From: an uncultured Candidatus Saccharibacteria bacterium
GTDB lineage: Bacteria; Patescibacteriota; Saccharimonadia; Saccharimonadales; AWTP1-31
Length of the DNA stretch: 64,000 bases
NCBI GenBank assembly: GCA_937903325.1
Contig: CALCZR010000060.1
Span: forward strand, 82,404 to 146,403
Direction of reading: 5' to 3'
Positions 5,528 to 40,980 of the stretch are shown in pieces (the stretch's first letter is position 1; each line of letters starts with the position of its first letter). Both the position numbers and the translations under genes were made by a program. The notes beneath the pieces were generated by a model. That model was not told the DNA's origin, ran no database searches, and saw nothing but the letters and a program-made list of their open reading frames with translations.

Positions 5528-6664
5528 CTAGTTCGAACCACCCATCACTCTATCAAGTTCAGCAAGCATGTTCTTAGGCTCGCCCGAAGCAAATACGGTT
5601 CTGGCTGGTTTAAGCTTTCTAACAATACCCTCGGCGACAAAATTCTTTAGATCCTGGGGATGAAGATCACCATTAGCAAATGTGGTTTTCAACTCTGTTA
5701 TATTTTTGCAGTGTAGGTCACCGCCGTGATTTTCCGCACGTCGGACAGTAAAACCATCAGGACTATTTAGTAGATGTTCTACCCAGTCGATGATCGGGTT
5801 AAACTCGACTTCTCGTTCAGGACAAAATGCTTTAGCGATCTTGCGGCGAATGTCATCTTCTGAGTCATGAATGAAGATAGCGCTATCGGGCTTGGACTTA
5901 CTCATCTTCATACTTGTCCAAATATCTTGTTTTGACTCTTGGTCAACAATTGGCCAAACGGACGGCTTTTGAAGACCAAGAATAAGGTGATGGTGGATGG
6001 CTACTGGCTTAACTTTCTTACCATCAATAACGAGTGGTGAAATATTGAGCTTCAAAGCCACATCACGAGCAATAACTTGTGCCTTTCTCTGATCAAGCCC
6101 TGCATGCGGAAAATGTACTTGTTGCGTAAATATATCGGCAACTTGCATCATTGGGTATAGCAGCTTAGAAAAGTCTACACTGTCACCCTCCTGCCGCCCC
6201 ATAATAGTGATGCTACGCTTGGCTCGGCTTAATGAGGTGTGCTTGCTAACCTCTACGACTGTATCCCAAAAGTGGGGGTGCGTACTGTAGAGCTCGCTGC
6301 CCAGAGTAAACTTCAGGTCGTCTGGGTTTCCGCCGACACATGCAAACGCTGCACGCAGGCCTTCCTTAAAGTATCCAACGGCAACTCTCTTAATCGTATC
6401 GTGTGATCCGTCTAGCTTATCGTTAATCCATGTATGCCAGTCTGCCAGAAAGACATTGCACTCAATACCAGCATCATGCAGGTCTTTAACTTTTTGCATA
6501 CACATTAGTCCGGTGCCCAAGTGAATCTTGCCCGAAATTTCAAAACCAATGTAATGACGTAACTTTTGACCACTAGCAAGAAGAGCGTTTAGGTCGTCGC
6601 TGGTCATTACTTCTTCGGTTTGTCTGGATATGAGCTGTGCTCGTTCTTCAAGTGTCATGGTCAA
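5528..6664 (-). CDS. tyrS: Tyrosyl-tRNA synthetase, archaeal/eukaryotic type
   Basis: It is a class I aaRS with a HIGH-like motif (GKIHLGT) and KMSKS. Recalled from memory, it aligns along its length with the M. jannaschii-type TyrRS: YIGFEISGKIHLG, YPMMQVADI, DQRKAQVIARD, KMSKSKP..IRRKIAKAFCP, NPIIDW, HGGDL, LHPQDLKN. Confidence 0.85.
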   Translation of the reverse strand: MTMTLEERAQLISRQTEEVMTSDDLNALLASGQKLRHYIGFEISGKIHLGTGLMCMQKVKDLHDAGIECNVFLADWHTWINDKLDGSHDTIKRVAVGYFKEGLRAAFACVGGNPDDLKFTLGSELYSTHPHFWDTVVEVSKHTSLSRAKRSITIMGRQEGDSVDFSKLLYPMMQVADIFTQQVHFPHAGLDQRKAQVIARDVALKLNISPLVIDGKKVKPVAIHHHLILGLQKPSVWPIVDQESKQDIWTSMKMSKSKPDSAIFIHDSEDDIRRKIAKAFCPEREVEFNPIIDWVEHLLNSPDGFTVRRAENHGGDLHCKNITELKTTFANGDLHPQDLKNFVAEGIVRKLKPARTVFASGEPKNMLAELDRVMGGSN

Positions 6665-6679
6665 TACCTCGTATTATAT

Positions 6680-6755
6680 TGGTCCGGAGGGTAGGAGTCG
6701 AACCTACCTAAACTGGTTTTACAGACCAGCGCATCTGCCGCTTTGCTACCTCCGG
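6680..6755 (-). tRNA. tRNA-Tyr(GTA): tRNA-Tyr (anticodon GTA), archaeal-like: C1:G72, A73, 5-nt variable loop, encoded CCA
   Basis: Minus-strand sequence: CCGGAGG TA GCA AAGCGGCAGA TGC G CTGGT CTGTAAA ACCAG TTTAG GTAGG TTCGACT CCTAC CCTCCGG A CCA. This folds into a 76-nt cloverleaf by hand. It lies 15 nt upstream of the TyrRS start. Confidence 0.9.
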
Positions 6756-6768
6756 ATATTTGCCAAAC

Positions 6769-6804
6769 AAAAAAGCCGTTCCGTGCATATTGCACAAGAA
6801 CGAC
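6769..6804 (-). terminator. Intrinsic terminator of the T-box leader
   Basis: GUCGUUCUUGUGCA-AUA-UGCACGGAACGGC forms about 13 bp with one bulge and is followed by UUUUUU (6774..6769). The 5' arm is shared with the antiterminator 3' strand. Confidence 0.8.
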
Positions 6805-7040
6805 TTAGAAATCGTGGTACCATCTTGCTTCGCTTCATCCTCACGGAAGAAGCCTTACTAACTGAACCGAATCAGTTGTAGCTATAACGGGCTTACCCGT
6901 CGAGTCTTACTGGCATTACTGCTTTCTGGCTCGCTGCTCCGAGGGAGTAATTCAGTTACTGTAATCTACGACAGGCTCGCAACACCGCCTGCTTCAATTG
7001 TCACGATTACGAACCTACTTGGTCCTCTTCAACGCGTTTG
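6769..7040 (-). promoter_or_regulatory. T-box riboswitch leader (tyrosine-specific candidate)
   Basis: Elements seen on the minus strand:
- Stem I base GCGUUGAAGAGGACCAAGUAGG
- distal hairpin CAGGC-GGUGUUGCGA-GCCUG
- UAC triplets at 6963..6961 and 6949..6947
- F-box CCGUUA at 6890..6885
- Stem III GCUUCUUCC-GUGA-GGAUGAAGC at 6853..6832
- antiterminator CAAGA/UCUUG plus ACGA/UCGU around the 7-nt bulge UGGUACC (6822..6816)
- a competing terminator. Confidence 0.8.
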
Positions 7041-7061
7041 GCTAAATTGTTAAGCCTTCAT

Positions 7062-7090
7062 ACTCTAGCAGATTTATTTGAATATGTAAA
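7062..7090 (-). promoter_or_regulatory. Candidate sigma70-type promoter for the T-box/tRNA-Tyr/tyrS transcript
   Basis: On the minus strand, TTTACA (7090..7085), a 17-nt spacer and TAGAGT (7067..7062) lie just upstream of the leader. Confidence 0.45.
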
Positions 7091-7105
7091 GCTAAAGCTT
7101 CTGAT

Positions 7106-7795
7106 CTAGGCTAAAATCTCTCGAACCGTAGCCTCGGCTAAGAGCTTCATGGTGTCAAAAATAGGAACAGCTCCACCACTCGGCAATAAGAGCTGCAGGT
7201 CAGTACAAGCTAGTGCAACACACTCCACATTTTGACCGGAAAGCTCGTTAACAACTTCTAGTATCAGTTCTCTATCGGAGTTTAAATGTTGACCCTCGAT
7301 CAGGCGTTGAATAATTTTGTCCATCTTTGCTCGTTGCAAATCATTAGGTGTAACAAACTTGATATCATTTTCCTTGAACTTCGATTCGTAAACATTGTTT
7401 GCGACTGTTGCAGAAGTAGATATAAGCCCCACAATGCTAAATCCTTTTTGCTTAACATATATGGCCGTTTCTTCAACGATGCTAAGCACCGGAATAGATA
7501 CAGCCTTACGTATATCTTCAATGAATACATGAAGCGAGTTGCATGGCATAACAATGAAATCAACTCCAGATTTCTCTAGGCGCTTAGCTTCGTTGACTAG
7601 AAAAGGAATGTAGCGTTCTTTCCCAGTATTAGAAGCAATGAGATCTCTCTCTATCTCAAACAAGAGCGGTACACTGGCAATAACTATTGAGGGGCGCTCT
7701 ATATGATTAAGTTTTTGGCACTGGAATATAACCTCTAAGTAAAACTCAGCGGTTGTTTCTGGACCAAGTCCACCAATAACTCCAACAGATTTCAT
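7106..7795 (-). CDS. Aspartate/glutamate-type amino-acid racemase family protein
   Basis: GGLGPETT is present near the N-terminus. The two catalytic-Cys motifs MPCNSLH and LACTDL are present. The length is 229 aa. Confidence 0.8.
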   Translation of the reverse strand: MKSVGVIGGLGPETTAEFYLEVIFQCQKLNHIERPSIVIASVPLLFEIERDLIASNTGKERYIPFLVNEAKRLEKSGVDFIVMPCNSLHVFIEDIRKAVSIPVLSIVEETAIYVKQKGFSIVGLISTSATVANNVYESKFKENDIKFVTPNDLQRAKMDKIIQRLIEGQHLNSDRELILEVVNELSGQNVECVALACTDLQLLLPSGGAVPIFDTMKLLAEATVREILA

Positions 7796-7930: not shown

Positions 7931-10627
7931 ATGCAGCAGTTATTGGATACACTCATCAATGGCCCCGCTCGCTACACCCAAGAACACCACTTGAGTCCGG
8001 CACTAACTCTAGTGGTCATAATTGTTGCCTTGTTAGCAGAGTTTGTAGGCTTCTATGCTATCTGCTTGGCAATAGTTAGATTCGTCCAGAGTATCCCGAC
8101 AATGCTTGGATATCTGCTTCGGAAGTGTGGTGTAGGCGGCAAAGAATCACCCAAAGTCTTCCTAGAGCTTACGTTTCCAGCGCAAACCGGAAAATCTGCG
8201 CCAGCAACCGAACAGTTACACACCTTACTCCGCAACCAGACGGCCAGTCGGAGCTTTTGGCAACGTTTAGCTGCACCCAAAACGACACGCTCCATGGAGA
8301 TTGTCTCTACAAGGCGTGCTGGCATCCGCTATGTCATGGCTGTACCTGCTCGAGAAGTTGAGTATATACAGAACAGCCTCCGGTCTTACCAGCCTGGCCT
8401 CAAGATTCGGGTAATAGAAGAATATCTTGGTGCAATACATGAGATATCTGCCGGAGTCGCGGAACTCAACTTAGCAGGTGATTTTGTACTCCCGCTGCAA
8501 GATCAGAAAGCTCTGAAAGACCACGACCCGATTGGCTACCTCACCGGTCAAATGACCAAGCTTGATCCTAAAGAATTAGTGGCTTTTCAGGTTGTGGTAA
8601 GCCCAGTACTTAACACTACTCACAGACGATCGTTGCGACATATTCAGTCTATGCGGGGGCGCATAAAGATGAGCAAAACGTTGTCTAACAAGTTAGTCGT
8701 CCAACGTACGCCTGTTGCCAGAATCTTGTGGCTACTCTGGTATCCGCCACTATGGTTTTTGGGAGCAATGGGTAAGATCCTAGCATTTATGGTTAGCGTA
8801 GTTACTAGCATGTTTTCTAGAGATCATGCGCTTCCCGACATGCTCATGGGCGGAAGCGACAAGAAGCGAGCAAACGACCCGTACGAGACGGAGCTAGGTA
8901 AAAACATAAAAGCCAAGCTCGACCAGCAATTATTTGAAGTCTCTCTACGCGTATTGGTGGCGTCGCCAGATAACAAACGCATTGTGCAACGCTTGAATGG
9001 TTTAGTGGACACCTTTGAGCCGTATGCCACGAGTAGTCAAGGAATTCGTGCCTATCGAAGCCTTCGCTTGCTATTCATTAAAACAGACAACAACCTATCT
9101 CGTTTTATAAGCCGTAACCTAACGCCTCATGTAGTAAGCCAACAGGTTATCTTATCTAATTCCGAACTAGCCAGCTTATACCATTTTCCTAACCCTGATT
9201 CAGTACGCACCGAAAATATAGTGCAGTCACTTAGTAAAACACTACCCGCTACCGTTGCCCTCAAAGGAGATACCCAGCTTGATGTAGTTTTAGGCGTCAA
9301 CAAACATCAGGGTAGTAGCACACCTATTGGCTTAACGGCCGATGAGCGAGAACGACACATCTATATAGTTGGCGGTACTGGCAATGGTAAAACAACCATG
9401 CTGGAGTACGGCATCGTGCAAGATATCTGTGCCGGTAAGGGTGTAGCCATTATTGATCCGCACGGTGATTCTTGCAAGAAACTCCTTGGCTATATTCCTA
9501 AAGAACGTATCAAAGACGTTATTTACCTGAACCCTAGTGACTTGGATTATCCTATTGGACTGAATCTACTGGAACTACCAAAAGGTTTGTCTGGTAGTGA
9601 GCTGGCGCATGCCAAGGATATGGTGACTGAGGCAGTTATTTCAGTACTACAAAAGATATTCGACAGTGGCAGCGAAGCTAATGCCTACCGCATTGAACGA
9701 GTGCTACGCAATGCTGTACACACCGCTTTTACCGTACCTGACGCTACACTCTTTACAGTTCTAAGACTCCTGACCGACACAACCTACCGAAACAAAGTAT
9801 CCAACAAACTGGAAGATGCTAGTCTCAAACGCTTCTGGAAAGAAGAAATGGGCAAAGCTGGTGATATGCAACGGGTTAAGATTAGTGGTGGCCCGATTGC
9901 TCGAATAGAGCGCTTTGAACGATCTGAGTCTGCCAAGCGCATGCTCGGCCAGGCTACTTCAACTATTGATTTTGACGACATCCTTGCTACTAGTAAAATC
10001 CTTATCTGCAATTTCAGCAAAGGACGACTCGGAGAAAGCACTTCCACACTCTTTGGTACAACTGTCCTGGCTAAGTTACAGCTCGCTGCTTGGCGACGAG
10101 ATGAAATAGCCAGTAAAGACCGTGTACCGTTTTATGTATATGTCGATGAATTTCAGAACTTTGCCAGCGAGTCGTTTTTAAGTCTGTTCTCGGAGGCTAG
10201 GAAATACAAGCTATTCTTAACCATGGCTCAACAATCCGTTTCACAGCTGCAAGCTAAAACCATGGTCAACACCATACTCGATAACGTTGGTACGGTTATT
10301 GGCTTTAGATCTAAAAGCCCTGATACCGAGAAGCTACTACTTCACCAGTTCAGCCCGTACATCGAGCCAGGGGAAATCATGAACCTACCAACCTACAACT
10401 TTTACATAAAGGTCGCCGCACTAGAATCGCACGAACCAATGTCGGGCGAGACACTACTGATTGAGGGTGAAGGCAGCGACAGGACGGCAGATAAAGTCAA
10501 AGCCAACTCACGGAAACAATATGCCAAAGAATATGTTGAGACAAAGCTAGAAAAGAAGCCTGAACCTGCAAAAAACTCTGTTACCGAGAAAGCTGCAGAC
10601 AGTTCACTGGCATCAATTGAAGCTTGA
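7931..10627 (+). CDS. Type IV secretion coupling protein (VirD4/TraG/TraD-like ATPase), full length
   Basis: There are N-terminal TM segments. Walker A is GGTGNGKTT and Walker B is FYVYVDEFQNF. The C-terminal ~135 aa are paralogous to the stub at 32647..33053. Confidence 0.85.
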   Translation: MQQLLDTLINGPARYTQEHHLSPALTLVVIIVALLAEFVGFYAICLAIVRFVQSIPTMLGYLLRKCGVGGKESPKVFLELTFPAQTGKSAPATEQLHTLLRNQTASRSFWQRLAAPKTTRSMEIVSTRRAGIRYVMAVPAREVEYIQNSLRSYQPGLKIRVIEEYLGAIHEISAGVAELNLAGDFVLPLQDQKALKDHDPIGYLTGQMTKLDPKELVAFQVVVSPVLNTTHRRSLRHIQSMRGRIKMSKTLSNKLVVQRTPVARILWLLWYPPLWFLGAMGKILAFMVSVVTSMFSRDHALPDMLMGGSDKKRANDPYETELGKNIKAKLDQQLFEVSLRVLVASPDNKRIVQRLNGLVDTFEPYATSSQGIRAYRSLRLLFIKTDNNLSRFISRNLTPHVVSQQVILSNSELASLYHFPNPDSVRTENIVQSLSKTLPATVALKGDTQLDVVLGVNKHQGSSTPIGLTADERERHIYIVGGTGNGKTTMLEYGIVQDICAGKGVAIIDPHGDSCKKLLGYIPKERIKDVIYLNPSDLDYPIGLNLLELPKGLSGSELAHAKDMVTEAVISVLQKIFDSGSEANAYRIERVLRNAVHTAFTVPDATLFTVLRLLTDTTYRNKVSNKLEDASLKRFWKEEMGKAGDMQRVKISGGPIARIERFERSESAKRMLGQATSTIDFDDILATSKILICNFSKGRLGESTSTLFGTTVLAKLQLAAWRRDEIASKDRVPFYVYVDEFQNFASESFLSLFSEARKYKLFLTMAQQSVSQLQAKTMVNTILDNVGTVIGFRSKSPDTEKLLLHQFSPYIEPGEIMNLPTYNFYIKVAALESHEPMSGETLLIEGEGSDRTADKVKANSRKQYAKEYVETKLEKKPEPAKNSVTEKAADSSLASIEA

Positions 10628-10651: not shown

Positions 10652-13600
10652 CTATGCCATTGGTTTGATAATATTGCTGTCTTGGCCCTGTACCTCACCC
10701 TTTACAACTGGAAGTGTGATGTCAATGGCCGTTCCGGACTTCTGCGTGCTTGTAACCTTTATGCTACCTCCACTTTGCTCAACGATTGCTTTGCTGACGA
10801 ATAGACTGAGGCCAAGCCCCTCGTGATCAAAGGTCGTAACATCCGTACCTCGTTGGAGCGGTTCAAATAATGTTTTTTGCGCCTCAGGGGTCAGACCAGG
10901 TCCGTTATCAGCCACTCGAATTCCTACCTTACCTCCAACCGTTCGTATAAGCACCGTTACGGCACTGTTGGCTGGGCTGTATTCCACTGCGTTGCCGACT
11001 ACTGCACTCAGAATGTAATCAAGCTGCTCGGATCGGAGCGGCACCAAGAGACCGTCCGTCACCGTAGTCTTTACGGTGGTGCTCTTTGTCTGAGCTTGTT
11101 GCTGGATGGCTGGATCGATCGACTGCTTGTAGTACGCACCAACATCGACACTACCTACAGGCTCGAGCTGTGTTAGCCGTTCGTAGCTAGTAAGTTTAGT
11201 AGCTAGTTTCTGCAGCATACCGAGACCATTCATTAAGAGGTGAGCATCAGGCAACTTATCCATACCCTCAGTACCTTGCCTTAACTGACCAGCATGGTGC
11301 TCTAGCGTAGGAGCGACTGACTGCAGGAGTTCTTCTTTTTGGCGAACCAAACCACGTGTGTTCACCAGATCCTGATCAATGCCAGCGTGCAAGACTTTGG
11401 CTCGGCTGTGGTAGAAATAGAGCAACCAGATAAGTAATCCGCTAAACAACGTCAGAATTATGTTGTTAGTCAGCTGTGCTCCCCGTTTTTCGTAGGCCCC
11501 CGTCAGCAACAGGGAAAGGTCAACAGCCGCTATACCTAAACCAATGGCCAGCTGGCCAGCCCAGAGATTACGGGCCTTCGTCAGCAGTGCTTGGTCTGCC
11601 TTACTAAAGCTCGACTGCGCTGCTGGTGCCAGCGCGATCTGTACCGAACCCTCAAAGCCCTGGACTGAAAGTTTTAGGGCTGCAAGCTTCTGACCAAAAC
11701 TTGCCAGAAACGCACCATCCAAAGCATGCTTACTAGTCATGAGTTCGTGTGCTCCCTGCATGACGGCTAGTGGGGTATTGAGGTAGTGCGTAACGATCTC
11801 TAGGAACTGCTGGACAGTGGCAACCCTGCGTTTTGCCGCCACTAGTGCCAGGCGAACACCACGCACAAAGCGATATTCACGCCACGCCTGTGCCGCATAG
11901 GCTACAGCAAGGAGTAGGAGTAGCGACAAGAAGAATACAGAGAACAAGCGAGCTGAGCCTCGTCGGGTGTTTGCCGAAGCCGTCTTGCTTGGTAACTCGG
12001 TAATACCCCCAGCCTGTAGTTTCTGGATCGCTTGCGGCGAGAATGGATTCTCTTCTCCTATGATTGGCGGCGTGGTGGTGGTCGTTGGAGTGCTAGCTGG
12101 CTTCTTGGGCGGCTGAATAGGTGGAGTTGGTGGCTCAACCGGCGGCGTGGTGCCAGGGGTATAGTTGTAGGTCCACCGCGAAATGTTGTTAGTATCTACT
12201 GTCCAAAAATCCCCATCGGCTTGGAATACACTTTGGAAATCGATCTCGGGTCGTTCAACACTGCTCGTATCAACAACCAGTACTCTGTTGAGCGAACTGC
12301 CACTCACAAAATTTTGCGTTGCCGTACCAGTGATATCAACTTCGAAGACACCCTGGGCTGCAACTTCGTACTGACTGGTCGAACCGACACAAATAACAGT
12401 AGTATGTCCTGGATAGTGTCTGCCATAATAGGAGTCTTCGTAATCCTCACCATCCTGCATCATTGTGCGCGTATCAACACATTGATATGGGTCAGAAATT
12501 GATTGGAAGGTAAATCCAACTGGCAAGGTCATAATCAGATTAGTGTCTGAACTCCAAACACTTGGACCAAGGTTCGTAATTGCTATGCGGAATGTTGCTT
12601 GTTTGCCTTGTGTAATCGGAAGTTCGGTAAGTAGTCGCTGTGACACACTCAAGTCATACACAGGGCAGGCCGCAGTGGAAAACTGATGGTCAGCCCCCGT
12701 ACTATACCCCTCTCCGTTATATGCCCACGCCTGGTAATGAAATGTTTTACCACATTCAAGCCCCGTAAGATCCAGGCTAAACTGCTGCGCGTTATAAGGG
12801 CCTTGGTTTTGATTCACCGAGTAGCCGTAACTGGTGGTTTCCCCGTAATTAAAGCCAACTCCCGTAATATTGCCTTGGCCAGTGTTTGTTATTTCGCCAA
12901 ACAATTTTGCGCTGTTAGTTGTGACGTTACTCGATGACCCCGTCTCTACCGCGAGCTCTGTGGGCGGAGGGCAGCTCGCAGTGGTAAACGTTTTATCTTC
13001 ACCATAGGTACCGAAGTTATCATAGGGATTTTCGGTCAAGGGCGCATAATGTTGTCGAGCCAACGCCTGGTAATGGTAGGTTGTACCACAGGTAAGATTC
13101 TGAACTGTCATAGAGAAAGGCCCCGTATTGTGACTGAGGCTAAACTTTTGAATACGATTAAGAGTCGAGTCGGCCACATAAATATTGCCGTTTTTATCGG
13201 TAACCACATCACTAATCTGCCCAAATTGGCTAGGGCCACTCCCTGCAGATCCCCAGGTAGCACGATGGCCAGCTACCGTCCCATCATAGAGGCGCTGCAT
13301 CCGTTGGTTCGCAGCATCGCCGATGTAGAAGGCCTGGTCAGCCCCCGTGCTTAGTCCAGTAGCTTGCACAAACTGTCCGTTACCCGTACCGGCACTACCG
13401 AAGCTCGATTCAAAGGTGGATGCGTTAAACCTTTGAACTCTATTATTGCCGGAGTCCAAAATAGAAAGTGATTCCACCTCACCCGTAATCCCGGATGGGC
13501 AATTAAACTGGCCTTCACCTGTTCCTGCAGCACCAAAAGCACCCATATACTGTCGTTTTATGTAACTGGAATCCGAGGCGTGTACAGCAAAATAATTACC

Positions 13601-15754
13601 CATGCGTAAATAGCTCTGCACGCGATTATTACCGCAGTCAGCTATATAGGCCTGCTCATACGTTCCTTGTGAGGCAAAATGAATGGCTCTAATATTGTTA
13701 AACTGTTGTGGTTCGCTACCACTACCGCCCAACTTGCTCAAGTAGTTACCTTCTTGGTCAAACTGCTGGATATAGTCACTACTATCGGCCACAAATACAT
13801 TGTCGGACTTATCAACTCCAATGGCGCTAATGGCGTTAAATTGTCCGTTGCCAGATCCGCTACTACCCCAATTTAGGATAAAATCACCATCCGGACTGAA
13901 TTTCTGCACACGATTACCGCCCACGTCCGCCACGTAGATATCACCATTGGACGCCACTGCCATAGGCCCTGCTCCATCAAATTGTCCGTTGCCAGATCCG
14001 CTACTACCAAAGGTGTCTACATGCACAGGTACTTGGCTCAAACTGTTCGAGCTAACATGACTGCCGTAACTAGTATCAAGCCCGTATGCAAAATATGTTT
14101 GGCCAATTGCGCCGGCAATGTTTCCAGATACCGTTCCATTAAGCGTTGCACTGGTGTCGCCTACAGCAGTGGCGGACTGTGTAGACACCGTTTCGTTTAC
14201 GAAGTTACACGGCGCGGTAGTAAAGGACTTATCTTCGCCGTACACTCGTTCGTCCAGGCTATCAATATATGCACGGTAATGATAGGTTGTTGCACAGGCT
14301 AGGCCAGAAATTTCTCGCCGAAACTCGATGTCACGATACTGGGGAACGCTCAGTTGGACTCTGTCGTAATCGGAGCTAGTTGTCAGGATTGAACCATCGG
14401 GAAGAGCTAGCGTGTCCAGAACATGCGAATTACTATTGATCGTATTAGTCCCGTTAGAATCTGCCGTCCAGGCTATGGTGAGTCGATCTCCCAGAATAAA
14501 ATTATCCTGCTCATCAATGTCAAAAGCAGGACTACCTTGTGCAATTTGTATATCAATAAAGCTTTCTGTCCCGTTGGTGGCAATTTTCTTAATCAGCCGC
14601 TGGGCTTGATACTTAATGTAAATTGATTGATCCGAACCCACTGCGACGCTCTGTGCCTGATTGTACGGCGAAGGACTGTTGATGTAGGTAGACAGCTCAT
14701 CGAGCAGTGACCCTGTCGGACCGTATCGGACTAGCTTATCTTGGAATAACACCAGTACATTGCCGGTATTCTCAACTGCAATGTCAGTCGCAGTACCGCC
14801 ACCCAGAGACCAGTCTAGAAGTTGCGTACCGTCAGTATTCACTCGGGTAATTTTGTTGTTACTAATCAGGTAAATATGTCCATTGGTATCTGCCACCATC
14901 CGGCCAAAATTATCCAAACATTCCCCTTCTTCGAGGTATATACAGTTCCACTGACTATTAAGGGTGTAGTCTGGGTTAAACTTAATAACCGTCGATTTGC
15001 CTCCACTCTGGTTATTCACATAGACATAGCCAGCACTGTCGCGAGCAAAAGTCTTTGGATAGAAGAATTGAGCACCTGAATCTTGCTGTGATATAGCGTA
15101 ACCTGTTACATAAGGAGGAAGAACTCCTGCAGGTATGGTTTCGCCATAACTGGTAGTAGTGCCGTATTGGAAGCCTCTATTGATTATGTAGTCAAGATTT
15201 GGGGTCATACCATTGGTTACTTCACCCCGTAGCTCAGTAGTCTGTTGGGTGGTTTTGGCATTGGTTAATGTCCTTGCCACCGCCGGTCCGCCAGGATTAG
15301 CAAACGTTCGGCTAAGCTGTACGCAAACTGCGGCTGCAAGCAGAATAAGTAACACCGAGGTATACGTCGACCGGAACAGAATTACTTTTTTCTTGTATAG
15401 AACCCTCGGGATAAACACCGTCTTGGCGTGGTGGAGTAAGCCATACCTAACACCTGGATCTTCCAAGGCAAGTGGTTTCTTGTGTCGCCGGTAATCAAGC
15501 TGATAGTAGACCGTCAGTACAAACAGTAGTAGGAGGCCCACAAAACCCAATGCCGTAAGCACTGCCAGGTAATCGAGCCTATTATTGGTAGATAGTAATC
15601 TCCAGGTAATCCGACTAATAGAGGGGCTGAACTGCAATAGTAATGATACACCGATCATCGCGAGCAAAGACGCAGCCATAATTATAAAATTCGTGTTGCG
15701 TTCTATTCGCCGGCTATAAAACCTTGTCTCGGTGTTTGACTTTTTTCTACGCAT
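10652..15754 (-). CDS. Giant (1700 aa) membrane protein: ~1250-aa extracytoplasmic region with NHL-type beta-propeller repeats and Ig/FN3-like and DUF11-like modules, Pro-rich linker, TM segments, C-terminal histidine-kinase core
   Basis: Features along the protein, N- to C-terminus:
- N-terminal TM helices
- recurring ..C.TTYHY(R/Q)A.. module ends
- NHL-like ..GNNRVQ(K/S/R)F.. repeats with GSGNGQF
- a PPVEPPTPPIQPPKKP linker
- an H-box-like THYLNTPL
- an HATPase_c region (DNGPGLTPE...GLGLSL). Confidence 0.8.
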   Translation of the reverse strand: MRRKKSNTETRFYSRRIERNTNFIIMAASLLAMIGVSLLLQFSPSISRITWRLLSTNNRLDYLAVLTALGFVGLLLLFVLTVYYQLDYRRHKKPLALEDPGVRYGLLHHAKTVFIPRVLYKKKVILFRSTYTSVLLILLAAAVCVQLSRTFANPGGPAVARTLTNAKTTQQTTELRGEVTNGMTPNLDYIINRGFQYGTTTSYGETIPAGVLPPYVTGYAISQQDSGAQFFYPKTFARDSAGYVYVNNQSGGKSTVIKFNPDYTLNSQWNCIYLEEGECLDNFGRMVADTNGHIYLISNNKITRVNTDGTQLLDWSLGGGTATDIAVENTGNVLVLFQDKLVRYGPTGSLLDELSTYINSPSPYNQAQSVAVGSDQSIYIKYQAQRLIKKIATNGTESFIDIQIAQGSPAFDIDEQDNFILGDRLTIAWTADSNGTNTINSNSHVLDTLALPDGSILTTSSDYDRVQLSVPQYRDIEFRREISGLACATTYHYRAYIDSLDERVYGEDKSFTTAPCNFVNETVSTQSATAVGDTSATLNGTVSGNIAGAIGQTYFAYGLDTSYGSHVSSNSLSQVPVHVDTFGSSGSGNGQFDGAGPMAVASNGDIYVADVGGNRVQKFSPDGDFILNWGSSGSGNGQFNAISAIGVDKSDNVFVADSSDYIQQFDQEGNYLSKLGGSGSEPQQFNNIRAIHFASQGTYEQAYIADCGNNRVQSYLRMGNYFAVHASDSSYIKRQYMGAFGAAGTGEGQFNCPSGITGEVESLSILDSGNNRVQRFNASTFESSFGSAGTGNGQFVQATGLSTGADQAFYIGDAANQRMQRLYDGTVAGHRATWGSAGSGPSQFGQISDVVTDKNGNIYVADSTLNRIQKFSLSHNTGPFSMTVQNLTCGTTYHYQALARQHYAPLTENPYDNFGTYGEDKTFTTASCPPPTELAVETGSSSNVTTNSAKLFGEITNTGQGNITGVGFNYGETTSYGYSVNQNQGPYNAQQFSLDLTGLECGKTFHYQAWAYNGEGYSTGADHQFSTAACPVYDLSVSQRLLTELPITQGKQATFRIAITNLGPSVWSSDTNLIMTLPVGFTFQSISDPYQCVDTRTMMQDGEDYEDSYYGRHYPGHTTVICVGSTSQYEVAAQGVFEVDITGTATQNFVSGSSLNRVLVVDTSSVERPEIDFQSVFQADGDFWTVDTNNISRWTYNYTPGTTPPVEPPTPPIQPPKKPASTPTTTTTPPIIGEENPFSPQAIQKLQAGGITELPSKTASANTRRGSARLFSVFFLSLLLLLAVAYAAQAWREYRFVRGVRLALVAAKRRVATVQQFLEIVTHYLNTPLAVMQGAHELMTSKHALDGAFLASFGQKLAALKLSVQGFEGSVQIALAPAAQSSFSKADQALLTKARNLWAGQLAIGLGIAAVDLSLLLTGAYEKRGAQLTNNIILTLFSGLLIWLLYFYHSRAKVLHAGIDQDLVNTRGLVRQKEELLQSVAPTLEHHAGQLRQGTEGMDKLPDAHLLMNGLGMLQKLATKLTSYERLTQLEPVGSVDVGAYYKQSIDPAIQQQAQTKSTTVKTTVTDGLLVPLRSEQLDYILSAVVGNAVEYSPANSAVTVLIRTVGGKVGIRVADNGPGLTPEAQKTLFEPLQRGTDVTTFDHEGLGLSLFVSKAIVEQSGGSIKVTSTQKSGTAIDITLPVVKGEVQGQDSNIIKPMA

Positions 15755-19400: not shown

Positions 19401-19981
19401 GACCGGGTAGGCACAATATCATCCCTGCCACGTTCCATGCCGTTCGGCGTAGTGCCAGTGTAATTACCGTAAAAGTGGAAATTGGCGGCTCCAGTAACTG
19501 TCACATCCGCATCGGTTGAGTTGGCAAAGTTAATACCCTGTATAGTAACGTTATTACCGGTCACCTCCATGGATCCCGCTGTTGAACCATCAATAGTAAC
19601 CCGGAGCAGTCCATTGAACGGATTAGGCCAAACTGCCGTGTTAGCCTGAGCATCGCCCTGGCTATAGCCATTAATAAGCACACGCTGCGTAACGGTCAGT
19701 GGCGTTAGTGGCTCAATAACTACATCTCCGGGGGCGTCGGCATTGATGTCGAAGGTAATAGTGTCGGTATCGGCAGGGTTACCATTACCATTTGCCGTGG
19801 CAAGTGCCGCTCGCAGCGATCCAGCACCCGAATCGTTAGTGTTGGTTACTATAATGTTTACGGGCGCCGCGTTAACTATAGGCACACCATTTGGAGCCAA
19901 TTGACTATACGCCGCTACCGCTAAGGTTGCCACAAACGATACGGCTAGAAGTCGTGAAGTTTTAATACGCATAGTTATCAA
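16493..19981 (-). CDS. Wall-anchored surface protein: signal peptide, right-handed parallel beta-helix region, three DUF11-like repeats, LGQTG sorting signal
   Basis: An N-terminal signal peptide is present. Many short G/N/I-rich beta-helix turns follow (..NIISGS.., ..ILGN..). There are three repeats: LNYEVTLKNNGPD, LNYQITLTNNGPD and LTYRVEFINNGP. The C-terminus is LGQTG plus a hydrophobic stretch plus KRKSNRR. Confidence 0.75.
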   Translation of the reverse strand: MITMRIKTSRLLAVSFVATLAVAAYSQLAPNGVPIVNAAPVNIIVTNTNDSGAGSLRAALATANGNGNPADTDTITFDINADAPGDVVIEPLTPLTVTQRVLINGYSQGDAQANTAVWPNPFNGLLRVTIDGSTAGSMEVTGNNVTIQGINFANSTDADVTVTGAANFHFYGNYTGTTPNGMERGRDDIVPTRSLILDDTSNAVVGGTTGSARNIFGFCALNCIEVRGSANTGTEILGNYVGLASDGVTSLDTTYFSSYGANRQAAVVILGDASDVTIGGSASGAGNSFEHNAEGAIFGQDSSNISILGNRILYNLANNGPQKTGISFQGVTNSTIGGAGAAANIISGSQREAIDIRDSALTAAASDNIVIEGNKIGVMGNGTTAFPNYWGIIIAENTEDVLILENTIVHTTNGPGIDLRDNAQRISILGNSIDDNNGKGILLSGTNTGDGGDNDTGPNGGLNAPGYTEIIEDGGNTEGKFTMDVPAGDYRIEFFSNDTADPDYPGEGQTYIDSISVTSSGIGLEEFDFLIPGVGHDNLSLTATEENVASPSGFGATSEFGTEGSLLIRDIDLEATTALQNPEDVAAGNILNYEVTLKNNGPDNLNLDELDQSNFSSDYLFALILPSDLVFSQASGSGLSCVDGGPGSAGSQGGLFADHADYSIVVCAHTSGTSMLNSGQSRTYTISAEVQEGKQDLLVYTIANTPTFDPNRNLYQDAITSGNDIIAEMLTNSFNNFDETKYTYEEVSDFSSSAVLLNPEDFEVGGVLNYQITLTNNGPDDFDLNMLNDPLPFAGTDLFMAFLPPSLTYTGVAGSNVACSAYGALADGVLPNHPDHSIVVCAHTGGSTIFASGQSISYTVSAEVTDASQPEFFVHVLAQFANTDVNDPDGPAVGEAAGSGNDLFDVLLSQGVNNYTRAYSQPADASLEAVLVNPEDVAPGANLTYRVEFINNGPFPMDPRYLDGQAVFNPLSNALFVGILAPNLTLVGSVNSDVNCQWGGPNSAALMGPLLEDHPGYSMLLCTYVGSMSSLPSGESITVDINVTTATAPDSFTSAFFTFGVPADPTNANLYRIFNSYNNDMIDTLQSNNDNGLALATYTAPGVDPPTDNGSNNGDGSNSGGDSQSDGGLGQTGQQIMVTVPLVLLLTSTGLLVLHKRKSNRR

Positions 19982-22298
19982 TCGTTACATTAGCATCAGT
20001 CTTAAGGATTAGATTTCCGGATGACCCCAAGTCGGTACCATACTGTCCAGCCACCAATACAGCAGCGTGGCTAGCTCGATAGCCCTTGTCGTCACGCAAC
20101 AGATATATGGAACCATTGGCAGGAATGACCGAACCGGCGGGGATTGTGTAATTGATACCTTCGACGACCCAATCAGAAATATCAACAGGCGTATTGGCGC
20201 CGTTAGTGAGCTTAATGTACTCGTCACTGTTGGTACCGCTAGCCACCACCTCGTCAATACTAACCGATTGCTTCTGGCCAAGGGTTTGCGAACTTGGTAT
20301 AGCCCAAGAATCACGGTAGTAAGCGCCGTACAACAACTTGAGCTCTGCAAGTACGGCCAGGTCTTTCTCTTTTGTTTCTCGCACATAGCCTACCCACTTC
20401 GCTTGGTCGGCGGCATTCAGATCTGCATAATCGTCTGCGAATTCTTCGTACTTATTAAGAAGTCCGTCATTGGTGTAGAATCTGTCGACAAGCGTACTTA
20501 AGCGCCGGTAGTACGCTGCACGCAGGTCGGGCTCATCGTAGATAGCCTGTAAGAAGAATCGGGAATTGGTAGGCAGTACACCCGTATTGTCATAGACGTT
20601 AATGTTAGTTTTAGGCTTAATGGAGATCAGGTCGCCATCATGGTCCCACGGCAAAGCCTCCCAGCGATCTGTAGTATTTGAGCGATAATAGAAGATATTC
20701 TGAGTTCGAGTGAAGTCATAGTGTTGGGTTATGGCCGCCATAGCCATGTAGTTAATAAGTGCCGGGATATTATTTTCGTCTAATACATAGTCACGCTTGG
20801 CGGCATCTTTGCGGTCCACTGTCATGTGGTCTTTCCAAGTCTCAAGATCATTGATGTTAGCCGCACCATTTTCGATGGTGAAGTAATCTTCGAATAGCTG
20901 CCCGCCGTTAAAGCCGTTGGCTTGCCGCCACTGCGACTGGTACTTATCGACCATAATGTATGCGCCTTCAAACTGTCCATTACGCCGGAGCTCAGTTATC
21001 TGGTTGTTCGTAGTTGTTAGTCCACCCTGCTCCATAGCCCAATAGACCGTAGGTAACTTGCCTGCTTCGTTGGCTTTGTAGTTGGCGTTTAAATGAAACT
21101 CTTTAATGTTTGGCGTCATACCTGGATAGGTCAGTGTGTGTCCAGCAGGCAGATCAACCTTCAGGCTCTTCTTTGGGAATCCCAGCGTATTACTGCCCTT
21201 GGCTCGTACGCTTGCGTTATCATACACCTCGTTACCATACACTATAACTGCCGGGTACTGATTTACTATCTGCAGGTCAGCCTGGGCGTACATGTCGTCA
21301 TAGTCGGCATCGGTAATAAACCATTGTAAAAGGGGAGCCTCATTATACGTGGCGCTCGGATCTTTGACGTAATAACCGTTATACGTCATCGAGTCATCTA
21401 CACTTGGTGAGCTCTGAGTACCGCTGCTGTTGGTTGCTTCAATCCTAAACCTCACCAGCGTATTAACAGATTGTGCGGGAATAGCATTAGCACCATACAC
21501 GTTATCTCCCGCTCCACCATCGTTATGAGCCCCATCATCAAACATAGTAACGGTTGCGTCGCTCGTAAAACCGATCTTATATTTTAATATGACACTCGTA
21601 ATGCCAGTTCCGGTAATAGTGGCTGTTATATTAACTGCTTGACCAGCGGTAATATTGTTAGGATCAGTCACGTTTGTAATGCTTGGCAGGCTCAGCCCGA
21701 ATACACTATTCTGCGCCAAAGGCGTACCGCCATTACTAACACTGCCCGCCCAGCTTGCTGCCAAAGAGTTATCGAGGTTTGGCGCTTTGAGCTCCAGCGA
21801 CTTACCTGTCCCTGCCGGCGTTAATGGCCATGGAGTATTTCGGGAATACGTAACAGTGTCCATAATGGCTGAGGTATTATCTACTAAAGTGACGGTTTCG
21901 CCACTATTACTAAGGTTGCCAGTATACGTCCCACTTGTTGTCTTGCCATAAGTATTCATCGTATTGGTAGCGTTGGGCGAAATAAGAAGATACCCACCAG
22001 CGGTAATGGTTGTGCCAGGGGTGAACGTCAGGGTTATTCCTTGATTAAAACTCCAGCCAGTCAAATCAATGCTTGAGCCGGTGGTATTGTACAGTTCCAG
22101 AAATTCATCATCCTGAGTACCAGTGTTTGGGTTATACATCATCTCATTGATGACCACATCCCCGGGCACAGCGGCACTTACTAGAGCGGGCTTACCAACC
22201 AGACACGCCCCAACTGATAGCATTACGGCTAGAACCAAAAGCAATGCTCCGGAATCCAAAGTCAAAAATCTGTGCATGATTGTTTTGGGCACCCTCAT
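19962..22298 (-). CDS. CotH-family (atypical kinase-like) protein flanked by lamin-tail (LTD) domains
   Basis: The N-terminal LTD signature is VVINEMMYNP...DEFLELYNTTGSSIDLTGWSF. The C-terminal LTD signature is DEYIKLTNGANTPVDISDW. The central region is of CotH type. It overlaps the downstream adhesin gene by 20 nt. Confidence 0.7.
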   Translation of the reverse strand: MRVPKTIMHRFLTLDSGALLLVLAVMLSVGACLVGKPALVSAAVPGDVVINEMMYNPNTGTQDDEFLELYNTTGSSIDLTGWSFNQGITLTFTPGTTITAGGYLLISPNATNTMNTYGKTTSGTYTGNLSNSGETVTLVDNTSAIMDTVTYSRNTPWPLTPAGTGKSLELKAPNLDNSLAASWAGSVSNGGTPLAQNSVFGLSLPSITNVTDPNNITAGQAVNITATITGTGITSVILKYKIGFTSDATVTMFDDGAHNDGGAGDNVYGANAIPAQSVNTLVRFRIEATNSSGTQSSPSVDDSMTYNGYYVKDPSATYNEAPLLQWFITDADYDDMYAQADLQIVNQYPAVIVYGNEVYDNASVRAKGSNTLGFPKKSLKVDLPAGHTLTYPGMTPNIKEFHLNANYKANEAGKLPTVYWAMEQGGLTTTNNQITELRRNGQFEGAYIMVDKYQSQWRQANGFNGGQLFEDYFTIENGAANINDLETWKDHMTVDRKDAAKRDYVLDENNIPALINYMAMAAITQHYDFTRTQNIFYYRSNTTDRWEALPWDHDGDLISIKPKTNINVYDNTGVLPTNSRFFLQAIYDEPDLRAAYYRRLSTLVDRFYTNDGLLNKYEEFADDYADLNAADQAKWVGYVRETKEKDLAVLAELKLLYGAYYRDSWAIPSSQTLGQKQSVSIDEVVASGTNSDEYIKLTNGANTPVDISDWVVEGINYTIPAGSVIPANGSIYLLRDDKGYRASHAAVLVAGQYGTDLGSSGNLILKTDANVTIDNYAY

Positions 22299-23486: not shown

Positions 23487-23627
23487 ATGATTGATTCTAG
23501 AGGGTTAGAGAAACAGTCAAAGATCGAGGAAAGTACCGATACGAGCGAAACGGAACGTATAGACTTGCTGGCCGATTTACTACTTGAACTAGCATTAGAG
23601 GAAGAAAGCAATGCAGCCTCCTCGTAA
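23487..23627 (+). CDS. Conserved 46-aa acidic sORF overlapping the recombinase start (candidate directionality factor/regulator)
   Basis: It was hand-translated as MIDSRGLEKQSKIEESTDTSETERIDLLADLLLELALEEESNAASS. It has the same length, position and ..LLAD(L/I)L.. core as the sORF at 39109..39249. It falls below the ORF-track size cut-off. Confidence 0.5.
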   Translation: MIDSRGLEKQSKIEESTDTSETERIDLLADLLLELALEEESNAASS

Positions 23628-25416
23628 TCGCAATGCCGTTGCCGCGATTCGCGTATCCACCACCAAACAAGGCCGTGATGGTGACTCCCCCGAAGCCCAG
23701 AAAGAGCAGATTGAGCGCTTTGCCACAAATAAAGGCATTGTTATCAAGAAAATCTTTGTCTTTATGGAATCGGCTAGTAAAGAACAACAGCCGATGCAGG
23801 AAGCCATAAACTACTGCAAGAATCCAAAGAACAAAGTAGACCTGTTCATTATTAAATCCATCGACCGTTTTACGCGTGGTGGCTCACTATCTTACGATCT
23901 GCTCAAAACCCAGCTAGACGGCTACGGCATTACGCTCACCGATACTTACGGCGTCATTAGCCAGGAACAGGTGAACACCCTGGAACATCTCGGTCATGAA
24001 TATAAATGGAGCACCTATTCACCGAGCCGTAAGTCCGAGATGCTTGAAGCCGAGCGCTCTAAAGACGAAGTTCGCGATATTTTGAGTCGTGTCATTGGTG
24101 CCGAGATACGTTACACCCAAATGGGCTATTGGATGCGTCAGCCACCATACGGCTTTGTAAGCGAGAAAACCGAAACCCAGCATGGCAAGCGAACCATACT
24201 CAAACCTCATCCAGTAGAGGCGAAGTTCATCATTAAGATGTTTGAGCTGCGAGCCAGTAGACAGTTTAGTGACAAAGAAATAGCCGCCAAACTTAACGAC
24301 ATGGGCTACCGTGGCCGACCACAATATCGGCGCTCCAAGACCGACCATAGCCGCGTTATCGGAAAAACCGAGGGCGTGCCACTCGACGACCGTAAGCTCT
24401 GGAAGATGGTCAGAAATCCCATCTACGCAGGCGTAAACGTCGAGAAATGGACAAAGTACCAGCCGGTAAAGTGCATGTTCGACGGTTTAATTTCAGTTGA
24501 TCTATTTAACCGAGCCAACAAAGGCAAACGGACGATCGTCGAAATGCCTGGCAACAAGATCGCTATTAGTGACAGCGTCGCTCAACGGAACGCCACCCCA
24601 CAAGGAACACGCAACAACGACTTCGCTTTCAAGCACTATGTCATGTGTCCGCAGTGCAATAAGCCACTGTCTGGTAGCACCTCACGCGGTAAGACTGGCA
24701 AATACTATTCGTACTACCACTGCGATAAAAGAGGCCACAAGTTTAGGGTCAGCAAAGAAGACCTTGAAACCCACGTTTACAGCTTTATAGACGGCATGGA
24801 GTTCTCGCAGGAACGCATAGGCAAGGTATTTACGGCCGTGCGTAAGAAATACGAGCAGCATGTGGCCACATACGAGGCTCAGACTGTAGCTCTAAACAGT
24901 CAGATAACCACCCTTGAAGCTAAAGCCCGTGAACTCACCAAAAGCTTCGCTACTATTGCTCCTTCGGCTCAGAAGTACGTTAACGAAGAGCTAGAGGATA
25001 TTGATAACCAAATTAAACACGTAAGTCTAGAAAGGACACGTATGGAAGGTAAAAAACCACTCGATATAGACAAGATTCTAAGCAGGGTCAGAAAGTTTTC
25101 CGAAAACATTGGTCAGGTGATCGCTCAACAGAGTAATGACATCAAGAAAGCCCAGCTTTTTGGGCTTATATTCAACACATTACCGACTTACAATGATTTA
25201 GCTTTCCGAAACCAAAAAACACCCCTTTTTACAGGGGTGAATCCGATCTTTAGCCTGCTGGCTGATGATAATTTTCCTCTGGTGAGCTTATCGAGATCAA
25301 GGTCAAACACCCTAACAGATGATATATTACTCACAGATATAAAACTCCAGAAACTAGGCATCATAGAATCTAAAGGTAGTTTTATATTTATACCAGAGGG
25401 AGTAGATAATGTTTAA
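23611..25416 (+). CDS. Large serine recombinase (integrase), full length
   Basis: The resolvase catalytic region is AVAAIRVSTTKQGRDGDSPEAQ. A recombinase domain is present. The zinc ribbon is CPQCNKPLSGSTSRGKTGKYYSYYHCDKRGH, followed by a coiled-coil. Confidence 0.9.
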   Translation: MQPPRNRNAVAAIRVSTTKQGRDGDSPEAQKEQIERFATNKGIVIKKIFVFMESASKEQQPMQEAINYCKNPKNKVDLFIIKSIDRFTRGGSLSYDLLKTQLDGYGITLTDTYGVISQEQVNTLEHLGHEYKWSTYSPSRKSEMLEAERSKDEVRDILSRVIGAEIRYTQMGYWMRQPPYGFVSEKTETQHGKRTILKPHPVEAKFIIKMFELRASRQFSDKEIAAKLNDMGYRGRPQYRRSKTDHSRVIGKTEGVPLDDRKLWKMVRNPIYAGVNVEKWTKYQPVKCMFDGLISVDLFNRANKGKRTIVEMPGNKIAISDSVAQRNATPQGTRNNDFAFKHYVMCPQCNKPLSGSTSRGKTGKYYSYYHCDKRGHKFRVSKEDLETHVYSFIDGMEFSQERIGKVFTAVRKKYEQHVATYEAQTVALNSQITTLEAKARELTKSFATIAPSAQKYVNEELEDIDNQIKHVSLERTRMEGKKPLDIDKILSRVRKFSENIGQVIAQQSNDIKKAQLFGLIFNTLPTYNDLAFRNQKTPLFTGVNPIFSLLADDNFPLVSLSRSRSNTLTDDILLTDIKLQKLGIIESKGSFIFIPEGVDNV

Positions 25417-39108: not shown

Positions 39109-39249
39109 ATGGCTAGAACAAAAGGATCAAAAAATCATACAGAACAACCTCCAAAAGAGGTACTAAATTCTGAAGAAGATAAGCTACAAATACTTGCCGA
39201 TATACTGTTCGATATTGTGTCCGAGGAGCTATCATGCAAGACCAATTAG
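39109..39249 (+). CDS. Conserved 46-aa acidic sORF overlapping the recombinase start
   Basis: It was hand-translated as MARTKGSKNHTEQPPKEVLNSEEDKLQILADILFDIVSEELSCKTN. It has the same length and arrangement as 23487..23627. Confidence 0.5.
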   Translation: MARTKGSKNHTEQPPKEVLNSEEDKLQILADILFDIVSEELSCKTN

Positions 39250-40946: not shown

Positions 40947-40980
40947 AAACCCGATTTCCTAACCGTTAGAAGATGAGGCC
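40906..40980 (-). tRNA. tRNA-Glu(TTC): tRNA-Glu (anticodon TTC), encoded CCA
   Basis: Minus-strand sequence: GGCCTCA TC TTCT AACGGTTA GGAA A TCGGG TTTTCAT CCCGG CAAT CGGAG TTCGATT CTCCG TGAGGTC A CCA. This folds into a 75-nt cloverleaf by hand. Confidence 0.9.

Follow-up and report, generated by a model that had tools for sequence, protein, structure and literature searches.

In a 64,000-nucleotide (nt) stretch of a contig from an uncultured Candidatus Saccharibacteria bacterium (CALCZR010000060.1, positions 82,404 to 146,403; this whole stretch is called the window below), we found on the minus strand, in 5’-to-3’ order, a sigma-70-type promoter, a leader of ~290 nt, a tRNA gene at 6755..6680 and an open reading frame (ORF) at 6658..5528. 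We interpret the leader, judging from its sequence and with a probability of roughly 0.78, as a class I (transcriptional) tyrosine T-box riboswitch that controls a ~1.5-kb cassette of promoter, T-box, tRNA-Tyr gene and tyrS, the gene for tyrosyl-tRNA synthetase (TyrRS). Uncharged tRNA-Tyr would then probably switch on both its own gene and that of its charging enzyme. The elements of the cassette are listed here with their window coordinates.

7062..7090, minus strand: leader promoter, with the -35 element TTTACA at 7090..7085, a 17-nt spacer and the extended -10 element TGc-TAGAGT, whose hexamer lies at 7067..7062
6793..7041, minus strand: T-box leader, aligned to positions 1-219 of the Rfam T-box model RF00230 at 87.9 bits
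6936..7035, minus strand: Stem I, with the K-turn/GA motif GC-GUUGA-AGAGG opposite CCUC-GGA-GC and the specifier loop AGUA, from the RF00230 alignment
within 6936..7035, minus strand: distal part of Stem I, with the AG-bulge-like ACAAUUGAA and the loop GGUGUUGCGA closed by GCAGGC/GCCUGU
6947..6949, minus strand: specifier UAC (Tyr), in the RF00230 codon columns, opposite the GUA anticodon
6901..6933, minus strand: Stem II, with CGAG/CUCG and the S-turn elements GAAA...AGUA, from the RF00230 alignment
6880..6899, minus strand: Stem IIA/B pseudoknot region, with the F-box CCGUUA at 6890..6885 and the loop AGC 6893..6891, which can pair with GCU 6882..6880
6832..6853, minus strand: Stem III, 9 bp with the GNRA loop GUGA
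6795..6827, minus strand: antiterminator, with helix A1 6827..6823/6799..6795, the bulge UGGUACC 6822..6816 and helix A2 6815..6811/6804..6800
6769..6804, minus strand: intrinsic terminator, a 13-bp hairpin (6804..6775) with one bulged U, followed by U6 at 6774..6769
6680..6755, minus strand: tRNA-Tyr(GUA), found with ARAGORN and scoring 59 bits with the Rfam tRNA model, with C1:G72, A73 and an encoded CCA
5528..6658, minus strand: tyrS, encoding an archaeal-type TyrRS of 376 aa, with the Shine-Dalgarno sequence GAGG at 6670..6667, 8 nt before the ATG

RF00230 matched 7041..6793 over its full length, with an E-value of 9.5e-20 in a 601-nt search (6600..7200) and of 1e-17 in the whole window, where the T-box was the sole non-tRNA Rfam match with E < 0.01. 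A default Rfam scan at gathering thresholds listed only the two tRNAs of the window. The T-box goes unlisted in such scans, and in routine annotation, because its score lies under the curated gathering score of 93 bits; its omission reflects this cut-off and not absence of the element. A first-pass annotation of the sequence had listed a set of T-box hallmarks on the minus strand and proposed a covariance-model scan. Reading the sequence, we found every one of these elements where it had been placed, and the model match is highly significant, though under the curated cut-off. This match, together with conservation and covariation in five further distinct leaders, supports the T-box identity. 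Most structural criteria would place the leader among the tyrS-type class I transcriptional T-boxes; its score under the threshold and the lack of two conserved details qualify this assignment.

The combination of promoter, T-box, tRNA-Tyr and TyrRS gene occurs in six distinct sequences from two lineages of the Candidate Phyla Radiation (CPR). One comprises the window and the related loci L164/L165, L166 and L167 (the window group), whose TyrRS is 81-84% identical to that of the window; the other comprises L005, labelled Peribacteria (63%), and L171 (64%). In a neighbour-joining tree built from TyrRS, these two groups branch next to each other at the base of a single CPR clade. The five relatives’ leaders matched RF00230 over its full length with 83.5, 84.5, 81.5, 71.4 and 67.8 bits, all under 93. 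The window cassette was found in identical form on several independent assemblies and is therefore not an assembly artefact. No T-box was found before TyrRS in the next-closest relatives (65-67% identity; L004, L168-L170 and L172), which have a plain promoter or a tRNA-Thr upstream, and none was found before TyrRS in the long-arm Patescibacteria, Chloroflexota and Dormibacterota loci examined.

The window and L005 leaders are 53% identical over the RF00230 model columns, and we compared them in Rfam model coordinates, which are independent of any structure drawn by hand. The 47 consensus pairs comprise 18 that are identical, 3 with a change on one side, 16 that are compensatory and 10 that are broken in one or both leaders; the broken pairs lie mostly in mid Stem I and upper Stem II, and the posterior probability of L005 in mid Stem I is low. 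A whole-leader MAFFT alignment misaligned the 3’ halves of the two lineages and was replaced by the model coordinates and by a hand-registered alignment of the discriminator domain (Stem III, A1, bulge and A2). In this domain, 97.9% of cells were paired across five distinct leaders, as against 44-65% when the 3’ partners were slid; 11 of 19 pairs had changed on both sides, and none of 500 shuffles reached any of the observed measures. The alignment was length-matched and its register set by hand, so these counts lean towards structure; both the slid controls and the Rfam comparison, which is independent of that register, speak for a real covariation signal.

Stem I begins at 7035 with GCGUUGAAGAGGACCAAGUAGG. 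Its K-turn has the UGA...GGA tandem G.A context, with AGUA at 7024..7021. Compensatory changes relative to L005 were found in both the K-turn C-stem and the distal helix (pairs 7/103, 8/102, 51/71 and 54/68); the latter, which closes the distal loop, reads GCAGGC/GCCUGU in the window and AUAGCC/GGCUAU in L005. The putative distal platform segment aligned to the model with high posterior probability; its bulge reads ACAAUUGAA and not AGAGA.

The specifier identifies the tRNA that the leader would sense. RF00230 places UAC in the codon columns of both diverged lineages (window and L005), and the triplet is kept in all six leaders; UAC is also the preferred tyrosine specifier (TBDB, PMC7778990). 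A second UAC at 6963..6961, which the first-pass annotation had offered as a candidate, is not the specifier: it sits in the 3’ strand of the upper Stem I helix (GAUUAC with GUAAUC). According to the TBDB rule, the specifier occupies positions 2-4 of the specifier bulge, counted from its 3’ end, with frames +/-1 considered and with discriminator pairing and the downstream gene checked (PMC7778990). Position alone gives UAC directly in L005 and L171, and ACU in the window group (ACA in L164), where the base helix is one pair shorter (4-bp GAGG/CCUC). ACU and ACA overlap UAC one frame 3’ and are both threonine codons, and the leader could on this basis be taken to sense tRNA-Thr, which we consider very improbable. 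Among related CPR loci, A73 was found in 30 of 30 tRNA-Tyr and U73 in 24 of 24 tRNA-Thr, and U73 is unable to pair with the U of UGGU in the antiterminator bulge. In addition, a switch between ACU and ACA would alter the sensed isoacceptor. The threonine frame was rejected on the discriminator evidence. Because UGGU fits the A73 of tRNA-Tyr and not the U73 of tRNA-Thr, and because tRNA-Tyr and TyrRS genes lie downstream, we assign the specifier to tyrosine, which is the outcome that favours the original proposal.

The domains downstream of Stem I are likewise in place. Stem II has its S-turn and, relative to L005, two compensatory pairs (106/132 and 109/129); it is followed by the IIA/B pseudoknot with the F-box, which reads CCGUAA or CCGUCA in the relatives. 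As read from the sequences, the pseudoknot pairing AGC/GCU of the window becomes CGC/GCG in L005 and L171, with both sides changed and pairing kept. Across the five distinct leaders, 95.6% of Stem III cells are paired and 8 of its 9 pairs change on both sides. The antiterminator helices CAAGA/UCUUG and ACGA/UCGU fold as predicted, at -8.0 kcal/mol, and helices A1 and A2 are 100% paired across the leaders, with 3 compensatory pairs. The 7-nt bulge UGGUACC conforms to the UGGNACC consensus, with a U opposite A73 of tRNA-Tyr.

The terminator folds at -18.1 kcal/mol (z -5.3), and none of 200 shuffles was as stable. Its 5’ arm consists of the 3’ strands of A2 and A1, and because the two structures share 6804..6795 they are mutually exclusive. 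Folding both alternatives, as had been suggested, gave the structures proposed, and -18.1 versus -8.0 kcal/mol is the usual energy relation in T-boxes. A simple terminator scan did not pick up this terminator because of the bulged U; folding confirmed it. All relatives have a comparable hairpin, at -18.4 to -20.6 kcal/mol and followed by U6-U7, with sequences that differ.

The leader promoter is conserved too. L164, L166 and L167 carry TTTACA-17-TAnnnT with a TGn extension, the -10 ending 30-31 nt before the GA motif of Stem I; L005 (TGGACA-16-TATAGT) and L171 (TAGACA-16-TATAGT) carry theirs 38 nt before it. From the U-tract to the tRNA 5’ end we measured 13 nt in the window (not the 14 nt first counted) and in L167; L166 has 14 nt, L164 has 5 nt, and L005 and L171 each have 6 nt. 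There is no room for a promoter in this gap, because it spans only 5-14 nt. Between the leader promoter and the tRNA, no promoter-like site meeting the criteria of the promoter scan was found in the four window-group sequences, which answers the question of a separate tRNA promoter in favour of the original proposal. The proposal that the first gated gene is that of the riboswitch’s own ligand is supported by this anatomy, by the short gap in all six versions and, in the window group, by the lack of promoter-like sites between the two.

We also noted a small hairpin, GGCU-UAACAAUUU-AGCC, where the leader is predicted to begin, 5’ of Stem I (7040-7056, minus strand). A CUUAACAAUUUAGCCAAACGC stretch in this region is kept in L164, L166 and L167 and is not present in L005 or L171. 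An Rfam ‘cow-rumen-1’ match at the same position is weak (E 2) and not significant.

Several observations weigh against our interpretation, and they concern the model score, canonical details of the structure and promoter-like sites outside the leader promoter. The window leader scores ~5 bits below the RF00230 gathering score. The structure departs from the canonical T-box at three points: the nucleotide 3’ of the specifier, the pair that ends helix A2 and the purine string. A purine is preferred after the specifier, for stacking (PMC7583486); the window, L166, L167, L005 and L171 have a U there, and only L164/L165 has an A. The conserved terminal pair of helix A2 is a G.U wobble that acts as a steric sensor of the aminoacyl group (PMC7583486). 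No G.U is present in these leaders: the pair is A6815-U6800 in the window group, with the uridine kept, and G-C in L005 and L171. Finally, the purine-string motif that flanks Stem III, 5’-RRRxG ... AA-3’ (PMC7583486), is imperfect in the window group, where GUAAG contains one pyrimidine; the 5’ flank in L005 is AAAAG plus an extra U. On the 3’ side, AA is present. These departures may tune the response. They could also be read, along with the scores of all six leaders under the gathering cut-off, as signs of a decaying, non-functional T-box remnant or of a chance resemblance. We give that idea next to no credence, given an E-value of 1e-17, the presence of all domains at full length in two such diverged lineages with 16 compensatory pairs between them, and a covariation that none of 500 shuffles matched; the terminator and the promoter have been kept as well.

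The promoter-like sites bear on how exclusive the control by the T-box would be. In L005 and L171, ATGAAA-17-CATAAT in the terminator loop meets the promoter criteria 31 nt before the tRNA; this site is not conserved across the groups. A further site lies downstream of the terminator.

6673..6701, minus strand: promoter-like site TCGACT-17-TATAAT, with TCGACT in the tRNA T-arm and the site overlapping the tRNA 3’ end; with 10/12 matches it is the top scorer in the region

The combination of a T-arm -35 and a TAnAAT directly after the CCA is kept in position in all six cassettes. The 6701..6673 site could give tyrS transcription independent of the T-box, but its function is uncertain and it may be a chance match. 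The tRNA would be unaffected, because it lies upstream of the site. Transcripts from this site in the window group are predicted to start at or after the GAGG Shine-Dalgarno sequence, which would leave a leader of 6-10 nt without a ribosome-binding site. In L005 and L171 the predicted start is the tyrS ATG itself, with no Shine-Dalgarno sequence, and such a transcript would be leaderless. One could therefore propose that the T-box is real but gates only in part: tyrS, and in some lineages perhaps the tRNA, would also have its own promoter, with the riboswitch modulating expression above a constitutive level and, in the extreme case, holding the tRNA as its sole exclusive target. We consider this unlikely. 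The -35 is a universal tRNA sequence and the -10 falls in an AT-rich spacer, so chance matches are to be expected and we treat the site as a caveat and not as a finding; inside the leader, the four window-group sequences have no site that passes the criteria.

We next consider the partners of the T-box. The window tRNA-Tyr has a 5-nt variable loop, UUUAG. The most likely start of tyrS is ATG 6658, 21 nt past the tRNA, in agreement with an exact database protein (P0001, MTLEER...); the 15 nt given in the first-pass annotation derives from an in-frame TTG at 6664. TyrRS scored 399.7 bits with NF006330 and 86.6 bits with the bacterial model TIGR00234, under the cut-off of the latter. Its best solved relatives were 2cyc (E 4e-127) and 2cya (E 6e-81), with the Pyrococcus and Aeropyrum enzymes closest, and Pfam detected in it only tRNA-synt_1b, the class Ib catalytic domain, without an S4-like domain. 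Both marks of archaeal identity are thus present, namely a TyrRS without the bacterial C-terminal S4-like domain and a C1:G72/A73 tRNA without a long arm, and the description of the partner as archaeal-type stands. The clade to which this TyrRS belongs is common to DPANN and Asgard archaea, Patescibacteria, Chloroflexota, Dormibacterota and some Planctomycetota. C1:G72 was found in 29 of 30 related Patescibacteria tRNA-Tyr, and A73 in all 30.

The variable arm of the related tRNA-Tyr is either long or short, with tRNA lengths of 83-86 nt and 73-77 nt. Long arms occur in L007, L013, L017, L028, L056, L064, L089, L091, L096 and L116, and short arms in the window, L004, L005, L055, L063, L069, L092, L134, L143, L157 and L164-L172. 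Both types occur within single TyrRS subclades of the neighbour-joining tree (short in L055/L063, long in L056/L064). This mixing suggests that the arm was lost repeatedly once tRNA identity had switched.

In Patescibacteria, tRNA-Tyr(GUA) lies immediately upstream of the archaeal-type tyrS. The pair is found in tRNA clusters of the orders Thr-Tyr-[tyrS]-Thr-(Thr)-Trp or Tyr-[tyrS]-Ala-Thr-Trp in L004, L013, L017, L028, L055, L056 and L063, and further loci with the same orders are L064, L089, L091, L116, L134, L170 and L172. It looks as if tyrS had been inserted directly after the tRNA-Tyr of the classic bacterial Thr-Tyr-...-tuf/Trp cluster, and many Patescibacteria TyrRS genes look to be embedded in what is apparently the same ancestral Thr-Tyr...Thr-Trp cluster. 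In L170 and L172, the CCA of tRNA-Tyr (2426-2501/2501) ends on the A of the tyrS ATG (ACCATG), and in L005 and L171 the spacer between tRNA and tyrS is 13 nt long and has no Shine-Dalgarno sequence. In these four loci, the tyrS mRNA may become leaderless through 3’ processing of the tRNA, in a manner that recalls tRNA punctuation in mitochondria. Upstream of the tRNA-Tyr of L169 (~2160-2330) there are tandem copies of a GTCATTCCCGC-type motif within an AT-rich stretch. T-boxes are known in Chloroflexi; in the Chloroflexota loci L040, L047, L048, L066 and L075, we found a divergent tRNA-Gln ~400 nt upstream of TyrRS, no adjacent tRNA-Tyr and no T-box.

Taken as a T-box in front of its own ligand’s gene, the cassette suggests the following mechanism. 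RNA polymerase would start at the conserved extended -10 promoter (7090..7062), and the nascent Stem I would capture tRNA-Tyr by pairing UAC 6949..6947 with the GUA anticodon and by contact between the distal platform and the tRNA elbow. If the tRNA is uncharged, its 3’ ACCA could pair with UGGU 6822..6819 and stabilise the weak antiterminator, allowing read-through into tRNA-Tyr and then tyrS. If it is charged, the -18 kcal/mol terminator would form and transcription would stop at U6 (6774..6769), 13 nt before the tRNA. RNase P would presumably cut the read-through RNA at the 5’ end of the tRNA, and trimming at the encoded CCA would complete its release, leaving a tyrS mRNA with a short leader that carries the Shine-Dalgarno sequence. 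The predicted circuit would combine positive feedback through the tRNA, which is the ligand, with negative feedback through TyrRS.

How remarkable this circuit would be depends on the number of copies in the cell. One reading, to which we give somewhat less than even odds, is that the cassette holds the cell’s only tRNA-Tyr gene and only TyrRS, so that, bar leakage through the terminator, synthesis of an essential tRNA would require its own uncharged form to open the riboswitch. If so, this would be the first riboswitch to gate the gene for its own ligand, and the first case of riboswitch control of a tRNA gene. The cassette would also be a self-contained, self-regulating and relocatable tyrosine-decoding module, which could explain swaps of tRNA identity in the CPR.

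A somewhat unlikely alternative is that the cassette, with the same mechanism, provides an additional tRNA-Tyr/TyrRS pair that is induced by stress and sits in a variable or mobile region, with a housekeeping pair elsewhere; the logic of a ligand gating its only gene would then not apply. At the nucleotide level, close relatives match the window only over ~7093..5555, and each has different flanking genes. An Asp/Glu racemase gene at 7106-7795 (minus strand) also adjoins the cassette in L166 (2-665), where it is inverted, and in L167 (2907-3053), where it lies downstream. Because homology is confined to the cassette, the flanks differ and the racemase gene is inverted or moved, the cassette behaves, as far as these comparisons go, as a discrete, rearranged unit of ~1.5 kb amid conjugation and recombination genes. 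The window is rich in genes of a type IV secretion system (T4SS) and in serine recombinases, a serine recombinase lies near the L164 cassette, and in the neighbour-joining tree the T-box TyrRS groups are not sister to the Saccharibacteria-labelled loci L007 and L017. An auxiliary pair would also be comparable to the T-box-regulated second synthetases of Firmicutes. Against this, the archaeal-type TyrRS and C1:G72 tRNA-Tyr of other Patescibacteria look like housekeeping genes, lying in a tRNA Thr-Tyr...Thr-Trp cluster or in an rpsB-tsf neighbourhood. CPR genomes usually have single copies of tRNA and synthetase genes. On viral contigs we found no relatives of TyrRS, and the 20 matches there to a 15-base Stem I pattern had no T-box features and were set aside as chance matches.

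We then compared the cassette with known systems. The closest is the tyrS-type T-box of Bacillus subtilis (RF00230, class I), with which the window leader shares the long-form architecture from the K-turn through the UGGUACC bulge, the competing terminator and antiterminator, the UAC specifier and the proposed control of TyrRS. It differs in that the first gene past the terminator is that of the tRNA ligand and not a protein gene, in that the tRNA is a class I tRNA with C1:G72 and the synthetase is archaeal-type, and in its mostly U post-specifier base, the A-U or G-C end of A2 and a score under the Rfam cut-off. The hosts are CPR bacteria (Saccharibacteria and a Peribacteria-labelled metagenome-assembled genome) and not Firmicutes, Actinobacteria, Chloroflexi or the like.

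The tRNA/synthetase pair itself is of a known kind. Archaeal-type TyrRS and C1-G72 tRNA-Tyr have been described in CPR bacteria and attributed to exchange with DPANN archaea (Mukai, Reynolds, Crnkovic and Soll, 2017, PMC5370408). The same kind of synthetase, tRNA identity set and bacterial radiation recur here, in a tight unit with a riboswitch in front. A search of that paper for terms found no occurrence of T-box or riboswitch, ‘operon’ for TrpRS-A only, and no tRNA-Tyr/TyrRS operon (PMC5370408). The first-pass annotation knew of no T-box described with an archaeal-type tRNA partner. It had the archaeal type of the partner right, and archaeal tyrosine identity in the CPR had already been published by that study, which makes no mention of a T-box. 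T-boxes in front of a foreign or archaeal-type synthetase are known from the second synthetases of Firmicutes (tyrZ, thrZ and lysK), among them lysK of B. cereus, an archaeal-like class I LysRS under T-box control (PMC2916919); unlike the cassette, these have no tRNA gene in the regulated unit.

The order of genes has a counterpart in units such as thrU-tyrU-glyT-thrT-tufB of E. coli, in which tRNA genes are co-transcribed with a translation-related protein gene downstream; those units have no riboswitch, and their tRNAs are not sensed by their own leader. T-boxes are the classic riboswitches for tRNA, and to our knowledge their known targets are protein genes, comprising synthetases, biosynthesis genes, transporters and a few regulators. 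In the comparative census of Vitreschak et al. 2008, tRNA genes are reportedly absent from the targets, which are given as synthetases, transporters, regulators and biosynthetic genes. The genes paired with T-boxes in TBDB are protein genes downstream of them (PMC7778990). In the literature accessible in full text, with most subscription journals outside this scope, we found neither a T-box in CPR, Patescibacteria or Saccharibacteria nor a T-box upstream of a tRNA gene. Three features thus appear to be new, in the sense of not found and not of proven absent: a T-box in the CPR, a T-box that would gate the gene of its own ligand, and a T-box with an archaeal-identity tRNA/synthetase pair.

A T-box with its own ligand’s gene 5-14 nt past the terminator would represent a new circuit topology, in which positive autoregulation of a tRNA is combined with negative feedback through its synthetase. 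The leaders would extend T-boxes to the CPR, where, scoring just under the Rfam cut-off, they have gone unannotated by pipelines, and they would link a bacterial riboswitch to a tRNA/synthetase pair of archaeal identity. Such pairs serve as an orthogonal system in genetic code expansion. A compact, self-regulating module of promoter, T-box, tRNA and synthetase would be relevant to the replacement of tRNA identity sets and possibly to synthetic biology.

The remainder of the window contains several genes of interest, of which those for recombination and conjugation are listed here.

39234-40946, 23611-25416, 7931-10627 and 26854-30980, plus strand: recombinase and T4SS ORFs, grouped
40906-40980, minus strand: tRNA-Glu(UUC)

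Large serine recombinases occur at two sites, and the ORF of one overlaps the tRNA-Glu(UUC) gene. The T4SS set includes a VirD4/TraG-like coupling protein, a pilin/TrbL protein and a VirB4-like ATPase, and the window may hold an integrated conjugative element with a tRNA attachment site. The closest proteins to the window MurD are named by their sources as Candidatus Saccharibacteria or Saccharimonadales (76%, 67% and lower), which places the organism in the Saccharibacteria (CPR/Patescibacteria). Two paralogous large proteins (19962-22298 and 35044-37860, both minus strand) have lamin-tail (LTD) domains and a CotH kinase domain, and a 1700-aa protein at 10652-15754 (minus strand) combines NHL/beta-propeller repeats with a C-terminal histidine-kinase-type ATPase domain.

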